From the IMG/VR virus record IMGVR_UViG_2531839195_000011: a stretch of 11,114 nucleotides of DNA. One strand, written 5' to 3'. This stretch comes from a virus (lineage: Duplodnaviria; Heunggongvirae; Uroviricota; Caudoviricetes). The stretch's first letter is position 1. Each line of letters opens with the position of its first letter. This document shows positions 9,730 to 10,767 of this stretch, in pieces. The notes beneath the pieces are model-generated. The model searched no databases, was not told the origin of the DNA, and worked only from the letters and a program-made list of their open reading frames with translations. Position numbers and translations under genes: made by a program.

Positions 9730-10274
9730 TCAGGAAGAACCTTCCGGAGAGGCGGGCCATTCAATGGCGTTGTATGAGGATTTATCAGTGATGGTGCTGA
9801 AATCCATCGCCTGCAGCGATTTCGCGTAAATACGACAGGCTTTCAGCTTTTCTTTATCTTCGTCGCTGATTAACCCCAGCAGCAGGTCTTCTTCCCATTC
9901 CCCTGTCCGGGCACTGACCTGAGCCAGAAGGGCATCACGCTCATCTTCCGCTTTGAGTCTGTAGTCAAAGACAAATTCATCATTGCGGTAAAACCAGTAA
10001 CCCGGCGCGGTAATGCGGCGGTTGGCGGTAATATCAGGAACTTCAATAACACTGGCGTTACGGGGCTCAATGCCTGTCACATCCTTACCGACCCACACCA
10101 CGCGACCGTCTCCGGTGTAAGTTATTTTAATTGTGTCCTGGCGAAATTCTTCAGCTCTTCATACCAGTTTTTTCCGTCTTCTGAAAAAAGCCAGGTGACC
10201 GAATATCGTTTTGTCATCTGATATTGTTCTGCTGTTTTCGGATTACCCGTAGTAATATTTTTTAAATGCAACAT
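9730..10274 (-). pseudogene. Tail-fiber assembly chaperone of the Mu U / P2 G family, frameshifted
   Basis: ATG 10274 gives [50 protein letters not shown]; a second frame continues ...[42 protein letters not shown]...IEWPASPEGSS (track ORF 9730..10101). Both halves fit the U/G chaperone family as recalled; the shift lies within 10125-10158. Confidence 0.7.
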
Positions 10275-10276
10275 TG

Positions 10277-10767
10277 TTAAATACTCGCTACGTTATACCA
10301 GGTGCCATTAATCAGTTTTTGCAGTGGTCGGTAATACACACCGTCAACGTTATCCGCTGAGTTACGGCCGGTATCCGATATCGCCATCCCTGACAGCCCG
10401 TGTCCCGAAGGTGCGCAAAATCTCCACGAAACGGTGTTACTGCCGGGGCTGTAATACATTTCATGGCCATACCGTACATCCTGTACCCCCTCTGTTCGAT
10501 ATTTATAGCGGGCATCGAAGTTTCCGTAATTTAACGGAATTACCTGTCCGTTAACAGTGAACACTATGCTGTTATCCGGGTTTCTCTGGCTGAAAAAATG
10601 CCAGCCTGAATCATCACCAAGCTCTGCAACAACAGGCCTGGATGGATTACCCCACAAATAAAACGCTGCATTTTTCGTGGAGTTGTTGGCGCTGGATAAC
10701 GTGAATTTTCTGGCAGTTCCGGCCTGAATATTCTTAAAAGCAATAGCCACTCCATTCTGAAAGCGGA
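10277..10767 (-). pseudogene. C-terminal (receptor-binding) fragment of a second tail-fiber gene; 5' part replaced by IS2
   Basis: Track ORF 10277..10795; its first about 9 codons lie inside the IS2 left end (from 10768), so the native coding sequence begins abruptly at the IS2 junction. Sits directly upstream of a U/G-type assembly gene (2-nt spacer), the typical fiber-chaperone pairing. Confidence 0.5.

Follow-up and report, generated by a model that had tools for sequence, protein, structure and literature searches.

The locus at positions 9730-10767 raises the question of whether two tail-fibre/chaperone pairs lying side by side are the alternative cassettes of a host-range switch or the parts of one fixed tail block. 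It lies in a window (the whole stretch of DNA analysed here, 11,114 nucleotides) that resembles an 11.1 kb contig of E. coli/Shigella type with IS2 sequence at both ends; Shigella is placed inside the species E. coli by GTDB. An earlier note, made from the sequence alone, had read the locus as a second fiber/chaperone cassette upstream of a Stf-like fibre, truncated by IS2 and frameshifted in its chaperone, and had assigned it to a host-range-switching module. The comparisons set out below indicate that 9730-10767 is very probably the first half of a four-gene distal tail block (fibre 1, Tfa, fibre 2 with a Stf-type N-terminus, and a DUF4376 protein) from a contractile-tail prophage, and that the block has decayed and is no switch.

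The window opens with the 3' end of an IS2 (1-396), in the same orientation as the IS2 copy at its opposite end, followed by a phage gene fragment on the minus strand (397-642), by an IS629/IS1203-like element and a phage integrase gene split by IS1, and by the intact sitABCD iron/manganese transporter operon (4239..7664, plus strand), a prophage cargo (moron) that is convergent with the fibre genes and lies outside the fibre module. Beyond sitABCD, the fibre C-terminal fragment, the U/G-family chaperone, the Stf-like fibre and the further putative chaperone that the earlier note had listed are all present on the minus strand, each with homology far beyond chance.

The furthest upstream of these is the 3' fragment of tail-fibre gene 1 (10277..10767, minus strand), which comprises the last 162 in-frame codons and the stop and corresponds to the receptor-binding C-terminal part of a P2 gpH/Mu S-type fibre. 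Specifically, it is 92.6% identical (blastp) to residues 257-418 of an intact 418-aa fibre of E. coli FDAARGOS_944, 54% identical to the last 148 residues of P2 gpH (522-669, E 9e-54), and 44% identical to Mu S 417-503; moreover, it matches PHROG tail-fibre families (E 3e-44), chain A of PDB 5YVQ (the Mu fibre S), and PDB 9CUY. Intact homologues of fibre 1 range from 332 to 505 aa. The RefSeq split of the FDAARGOS_944 gene into two partial pseudogenes is misleading, as the gene reads as one uninterrupted 418-codon ORF.

Fibre gene 1 ends exactly where the second IS2 copy begins (10768..11114, plus strand), position 10767 being the last non-IS2 base, as the earlier note had proposed in attributing the truncation to this element. 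The copy consists of the IS2 5' end, with the left terminal repeat and the start of a readable orfA, and runs off the window, so that the far end of the element and its target duplication lie outside; over its 347 bp it is 98.8% identical to an annotated IS2 of E. coli VL40, and its first bases, TAGACTGGCCCCC at 10768, start at the same terminal base as the VL40 element. An edge 12-17 bp outside 10768, where megablast matches began, was rejected after the direct comparison with VL40. The listed 172-aa ORF at 10277-10795 begins at a TTG within the IS2 terminal repeat, and its first ~10 codons are therefore spurious. The junction between fibre 1 and IS2 is absent from complete E. coli genomes (0 records at ≥80% coverage).

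Three nucleotides past the fibre 1 stop, at 10274, starts a pseudogene of the Mu U/P2 G/lambda Tfa family (9730..10274, minus strand), split into ORFs 10122-10274 and 9730-10101. It carries the Pfam domain Caudo_TAP (PF02413, E 3e-23), and over its first 50 aa it shares 64-68% identity with Mu U, Mu U', and P2 G, the last at 68%; an intact homologue matches chain B of PDB 5YVQ (Mu U) with E 1e-36. The gpH/S-like C-terminus followed by a Caudo_TAP gene reproduces the pairing of P2 gpH-gpG and Mu S-U, with both genes defective here. The frameshift noticed earlier in this chaperone gene is a single-base deletion at ~10138, located against two intact 181-aa relatives, after which the product is 98% identical to the intact 181-aa Tfa of the E. 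coli prophage in CFSAN029787. A programmed frameshift was considered and rejected, given that the relatives all have a single ORF of 181-182 aa, from which the window differs by the 1-bp deletion.

The Tfa stop is separated from the start of fibre 2 by a 23-nt spacer (9707..9729, minus strand; TTTAATTTATCGCGAGAAAAACA) that is nearly identical in the window, in CFSAN029787, and in the phages phiP27 and vB_Apl-pPE4. Of 5426 complete E. coli genomes, 122 contain the Tfa-to-fibre-2 junction, with the same annotation throughout. A weak, terminator-like hairpin of 5 pairs at 9745-9733 abuts the spacer.

The second fibre gene (8439..9706, minus strand) is likewise a pseudogene, with a lambda Stf-type N-terminal domain and a divergent C-terminus. 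Its N-terminus matches the Pfam family phage_tail_N (PF08400) with E 4e-51, and its product is 98% identical to an intact 422-aa protein of CFSAN029787, with the identity spread over two frames; a 1-bp deletion at ~9620, near codon 30, accounts for the frameshift, which the first reading of the sequence had missed. Compared with L56 of phiP27, the first 29 residues are 93% identical and the remainder 42%. The gene overlaps or abuts at its stop an apparently intact gene for a DUF4376 protein (7865..8488, minus strand), the true start of which may be the GTG at 8428, as in L57 of phiP27. The DUF4376 domain (PF14301) covers residues 90-194 of 207 (E 1e-14), and the protein is 98% identical to its CFSAN029787 homologue and 76% identical to L57. 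It shares with DUF4376 chaperones the C-terminal position of the domain, a size of ~20 kDa, and a gene directly downstream of a fibre gene. In Alteromonas phage V22, the DUF4376 protein gp27 was identified as a fibre chaperone by co-expression and is needed for a functional fibre (PMC7289586), and in the Campylobacter prophage CJIE1, experiments likewise showed a DUF4376 gene downstream of the H-fibre to encode a fibre chaperone needed for a functional fibre (PMC7882524). By analogy with these experiments in other phages, the DUF4376 protein is presumed to be the cognate chaperone that folds fibre 2. An exact-protein lookup in public sequence returned the identical DUF4376 protein from one other contig only, an 8.2-kb draft that is rearranged differently, with fibre 2 cut at ~8604 (window numbering) and fused to an IS orfA fragment.

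Intact relatives show how these two pairs are arranged. The prophage of CFSAN029787, which is 97.5% identical to the window over 7600-10555, has the order baseplate J, DUF2612, fibre 1 (410 aa), Tfa (181 aa), fibre 2 (422 aa), DUF4376 (207 aa), sitDCBA, and the chromosomal uspF, with sitDCBA convergent with the fibre block. The genome of the Stx2e phage phiP27 ends in the same four genes (L54-L57) followed by attR, with no invertase among its 63 features, while that of vB_Apl-pPE4 ends in the same four genes (gp67-gp70) followed by an integrase, again with no invertase; by tblastn, both sets match the window in the same order. All four homologues thus occur in the window in the phiP27 order, on one strand, and with the conserved junction. 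In these relatives, the baseplate genes are followed at once by the four co-oriented genes, which close a single contiguous tail operon. The earlier note had set its alternative cassettes against the case of a single contiguous tail cluster with no such cassette; a single contiguous cluster is indeed what intact relatives show, but one that contains the two pairs in tandem. In relatives, the "upstream cassette" comes after the baseplate J and DUF2612 genes; it is not a second cassette, as had been supposed, but the primary fibre of the phage and its chaperone, placed as H-G is in P2 and S-U in Mu. It is the Stf-like fibre and the DUF4376 protein that constitute a second self-contained pair, travelling with the primary one.

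Among known systems, phiP27 is the closest parallel, matching the window in the four genes and in their order and orientation, in a nearly identical spacer, and in the lack of an invertase, with 79% identity in the C-terminal part of Tfa and the 76% identity of the DUF4376 protein given above. It differs in that its four genes are intact, that it has a Mu-like baseplate and no sit operon, and that the fibre 1 tip is only 41% identical, whereas the block of the window follows, in its relatives, a baseplate J/DUF2612-type baseplate and is cut by IS2 and frameshifted twice. P2 gpH is the best characterized match to the fibre 1 fragment, with ~74% DNA identity across the H/G junction, and P2 likewise places its fibre gene after the baseplate genes in a non-invertible arrangement; the fibre/chaperone pair of P2, however, is its only one and is followed by a terminator, where the window has a second pair 23 nt further on.

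Two other histories of the block were weighed. The first is that the junction is a recombination scar, in which a contractile-tail phage contributed fibre 1 and Tfa, while a lambdoid right end contributed the Stf-type fibre, its chaperone, sitABCD, and att/int, leaving fibre 2 as baggage without a role on the contractile tail. The PF08400 domain is indeed the N-terminal domain of lambda Stf, the DUF4376 gene has DNA matches of 76-81% in the side-fibre regions of the lambdoid Rac-SA53 and SerU-LTIIb, and the order int, sit, fibres in the window mirrors the vegetative lambda map. The sit operon points in the same direction. The sitABCD operon is a common lambda moron (PMC6969025); many lambdoid phages carry it directly behind stf/tfa, as does a lambdoid prophage at this same uspF locus. 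Lambdoid phages thus have the operon just downstream of the last fibre/chaperone gene and convergent with it, as in the window, and the segment from sitD to window position 7684 is 97.7% identical to the sitD region of lambdoid phages; sit also adjoins the DUF4376 gene at the same position in CFSAN029787. The lambdoid Stf differs from fibre 2 in belonging to a non-contractile tail, in coming after J and lom, and in having a Tfa of Caudo_TAP type, whereas fibre 2 of the window follows a fibre/Tfa pair and has a DUF4376 partner.

Such a scar is nonetheless improbable. The four genes are kept together on at least two backbones (the Mu-like phiP27, and the DUF3383/DUF2612-type E. coli prophages together with pPE4), their frames intact and their spacer almost unchanged, and the block occurs with or without sit, in 122 complete genomes. 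Moreover, Alteromonas phage V22, of a related tail lineage, naturally carries several fibres and a DUF4376 chaperone after baseplate J and DUF2612: its gp26-gp27 place the DUF4376 gene directly after a fibre gene, at the end of a multi-fibre block behind the baseplate wedge and DUF2612 genes, although V22 is a marine virulent phage whose fibres have no detectable sequence similarity to those of the window, so that the likeness is at the level of domain families only.

The second is that the block is the relic of a host-range switch inverted by a recombinase of the Din family (Gin/Cin/Pin), the two pairs being alternative cassettes and the invertase and crossover sites being lost or lying outside the window. 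No invertase was found in the window by tblastn with PinE and Gin (best E 0.6), while the same queries gave E 1e-116 in VL40 and E 9e-14 on a pin remnant in FDAARGOS_944, in agreement with the earlier note, which had seen no invertase gene and no gix/cix-like site. Three search strategies for crossover sites bore out the second of these observations: within the window, the degenerate 26-bp Din-type consensus had no match at ≤3 mismatches, the pix sites of ECONIH2 had none at ≤4 mismatches and their 12-bp core none at ≤1, and scoring of every 26-mer against the consensus gave none with ≥14 of 20 consensus positions. These searches covered the window; the constant/variable boundary of fibre 1 would be located on the far side of IS2. 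A search for inverted repeats in the window and in the relatives gave short imperfect pairs only, none of those in the window being significant. Furthermore, there is no oppositely oriented cassette lacking its 5' part: the minus strand encodes both pairs, and fibre 2 possesses a start codon of its own as well as the PF08400 domain.

Traces of invertible modules are found in relatives of the upstream pair. In FDAARGOS_944, fibre 1 carries a 26-bp gix-like site (TTCCTGTAAACCAAGGTTTTCGAGAG) at the boundary of its constant and variable parts, and changes from an ECONIH2-type constant part to the variable part exactly at this 26-mer; the variable-side half of the site and the bases that follow are identical to Mu gix (GGTTTACAGGAAACGGTA, encoding GLQETV), and 5.8 kb further downstream a 96-bp remnant of pin survives. 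In VL40, this place is taken by a pinE pseudogene, and fibre 2, DUF4376, and ipaHb replace the inverted pair. An inverted-repeat pair in VL40, between the 3' end of fibre 1 and the pinE-ipaHb spacer, was considered as a remnant of an inverted fibre tip, but translation of the spacer and tblastn revealed no fibre or Tfa remnant, and the pair was treated as a chance occurrence. Conversely, the ECONIH2 prophage, which shares with VL40 both the tail backbone (baseplate J, DUF2612, fibre, Tfa) and the chromosomal site (yfhH), carries a canonical fibre-tfa-(tfa'-Sv')-pinE module, with 20-bp pix repeats (CTTCTCCCAAACCAAGGTTT) 1.8 kb apart and an intact pinE. VL40 and FDAARGOS_944 have both lost the partner site beside pin, and their pin is dead; no inversion is possible even there.

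Compared with the invertible systems themselves, the window shares with the Mu S-U genes of the G segment (PDB 5YVQ) a homologous fibre 1 tip and Tfa, and the fibre 1 of its FDAARGOS_944 relative shares the Mu gix half-site, but the window has neither a Gin-type invertase nor a gix pair nor an inverted S'-U', and presents instead a co-oriented, self-contained fibre 2 with a chaperone of a different family. Similarly, the e14-type P segment acted on by Pin, found in the ECONIH2 and O157 SS17 prophages, resembles the present case through the backbone and yfhH site common to ECONIH2 and VL40, whereas its inverted tfa'-Sv', its pix repeats, and its intact pinE have no counterpart in the window.

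Even granting the homology of the fibre 1 C-terminus and Tfa to the Mu Sv-U and P2 H-G cassettes, the gix-like site and pin remnants of FDAARGOS_944 and VL40, and the canonical Pin module of ECONIH2, a switch relic is the least probable of the readings, since the two pairs share one strand, the fibre 2 gene is complete without fusion to a constant part, two phages devoid of an invertase carry the tandem block together with the conserved spacer, the window has no invertase, crossover site, or significant inverted repeat, and the pin genes of the relatives are dead. What stands of the switching module proposed in the earlier note is thus the homology of the upstream pair to invertible Sv-U cassettes, and what falls is the switch, as the pairs are co-oriented, fibre 2 is self-anchored, and the junction is conserved in invertase-free phages. 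On account of the homology to the Mu and P2 cassettes, the gix-like site, and the pin remnants, the upstream cassette therefore belongs to a pool that has circulated through invertible segments; the link of the block to invertible modules is historical, and the tandem block itself is a fixed arrangement.

Read as a fixed four-gene distal tail block, the locus suggests the following mode of action for an intact copy. The block would apparently be read as one late operon in a single direction, and no sigma-70-like promoter was found across 7600-10800. Fibre 1, with its P2 H/Mu S-type tip, would be folded by the Tfa of the Mu U/P2 G family, and fibre 2, with its own lambda Stf-type anchoring domain, by the DUF4376 protein. 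With both pairs co-transcribed late and made together, the particle would carry two kinds of receptor-binding fibres that are not alternately expressed, which would broaden or layer receptor recognition. The presence of the block on two tail backbones with a near-invariant spacer argues for selection on the block as a whole. For the phiP27 fibres (L54, L56), no virion proteomics, structure, or functional work was found in the literature.

In the window, the block has been inactivated by three independent lesions, namely the IS2 in fibre 1, which removed or displaced everything upstream of its last 162 codons, the 1-bp deletion in Tfa, and the 1-bp deletion in fibre 2. Three of the four block genes are broken, and sitABCD and the DUF4376 ORF are all that remains intact in or next to the block. 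Assembly errors could in principle account for both 1-bp deletions; neither consists of a simple change in homopolymer length. Judging from the context, the lesions and the intact sitABCD fit the usual pattern of prophage domestication in IS-rich E. coli/Shigella genomes. The locus is a gene block of known kind that has been pseudogenized by ordinary prophage decay, another case in which decay has kept a useful cargo (sitABCD). For annotation, it should be described as the pseudogenes of a prophage tail-fibre block (the IS2-cut 3' fragment of a fibre gene, a frameshifted Tfa gene, and a frameshifted gene for a Stf-type fibre) with a DUF4376 chaperone gene, and not as a host-range shufflon.

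A more tentative idea is that a constitutive two-fibre design, with both fibres on one contractile tail, may in this lineage have replaced an invertible switch by displacing the silent inverted cassette of a Pin/Gin-type module. If so, FDAARGOS_944 and VL40 would be transitional forms, with the gix-like site, the dead pin, and, between them, the second fibre pair and an ipaH effector gene; the window, as a decayed copy, illustrates this idea and is no test of it. For phage evolution, the modest point is that one tail backbone can carry, at the same position, either a Pin-invertible pair or a fixed tandem second fibre, with intermediates that keep a gix-like site and pin remnants.

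The Stf-like fibre 2 gene (8439-9706, minus strand), which the earlier note took as intact, is a pseudogene: relative to two intact relatives, it carries a 1-bp deletion at about 9620, near codon 30, which places residues 1-29 and 31-422 in separate reading frames. The neighbouring DUF4376 ORF, of 207 aa as annotated (7865-8488), overlaps fibre 2 by 50 nt, and its alignments to phiP27 L57 and PHROG 1141 start only at residue 19-21; judging from these alignments, the true start of the gene may be the GTG at 8428, located 10 nt past the fibre 2 stop.

The only other public contig with an identical DUF4376 protein (GCA_014284585.1, contig JACDPS010000152) is an independent and more extensive decay of the same fibre block. 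Specifically, fibre 2 is broken off about 165 bp before its stop, at about 2500-2620 of that contig (corresponding to about 8604 of the window), and is joined to an IS orfA fragment (…KVRLAKQALQPGAVVARIAREHDI), past which lies unrelated phage early-region DNA. Some E. coli genomes, found by searching complete genomes for the conserved junction between Tfa and fibre 2 (hits H141-H147; e.g., NZ_CM128596.1, 2423744-2423977), share the conserved 3' end of Tfa and the spacer but differ from the standard block in that the next gene is not a Stf-N fibre but one whose sole annotation is "DUF4376 domain-containing protein", and may represent a further variant of the block.

Fibre 1 of the related prophage in E. 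coli FDAARGOS_944 (14385-15641, minus strand) is labelled in RefSeq as two partial "phage tail protein" pseudogenes, but is a single, uninterrupted ORF of 418 codons. This fibre is a chimera with its junction at a gix-like site (15291-15316; TTCCTGTAAACCAAGGTTTTCGAGAG), whose variable-side half-site is identical to that of phage Mu gix, while the constant side has 98% identity to the Pin-type prophage of ECONIH2.

At the left end of the window, a phage gene for a protein of unknown function (397-642, minus strand; PHROG 3721, E 7e-38) is truncated by IS2 to its 83 N-terminal codons, and this fragment has no homologue in the tail regions of the relatives compared. A phage tyrosine integrase gene (2207-3784), split by IS1 at about 2394-3089, is oriented towards sitA, from which it is separated by 455 bp on the upstream side. 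Integrase, sit and fibre genes thus follow one another as they do on the vegetative map of lambdoid phages that carry sit (Lambda_ev087); in the intact CFSAN029787 prophage, by contrast, uspF directly adjoins sitA, which suggests tandem prophages or a rearrangement of the att region. The window ends in an IS2 3' end on the left (1-396) and an IS2 5' end on the right (10768-11114), both in the same orientation; thus, the int-sitABCD-fibre segment, roughly 10.4 kb, is bracketed by direct copies. The 5-mers flanking the two ends are unlike (TTCAC and GCGGA), and the window could be either a contig that breaks off within repeats at its two ends or else a potential composite/translocatable unit.

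Lastly, in the related prophages of E. coli VL40 (6921-9791) and FDAARGOS_944 (9379-11791), ipaHb, a gene for a type III effector, is flanked by the DUF4376 gene on one side and by a defunct pinE invertase gene on the other, in the position that sitABCD (4239-7664, plus strand) occupies in the window and in CFSAN029787; therefore, one slot downstream of the fibre block takes different cargo.
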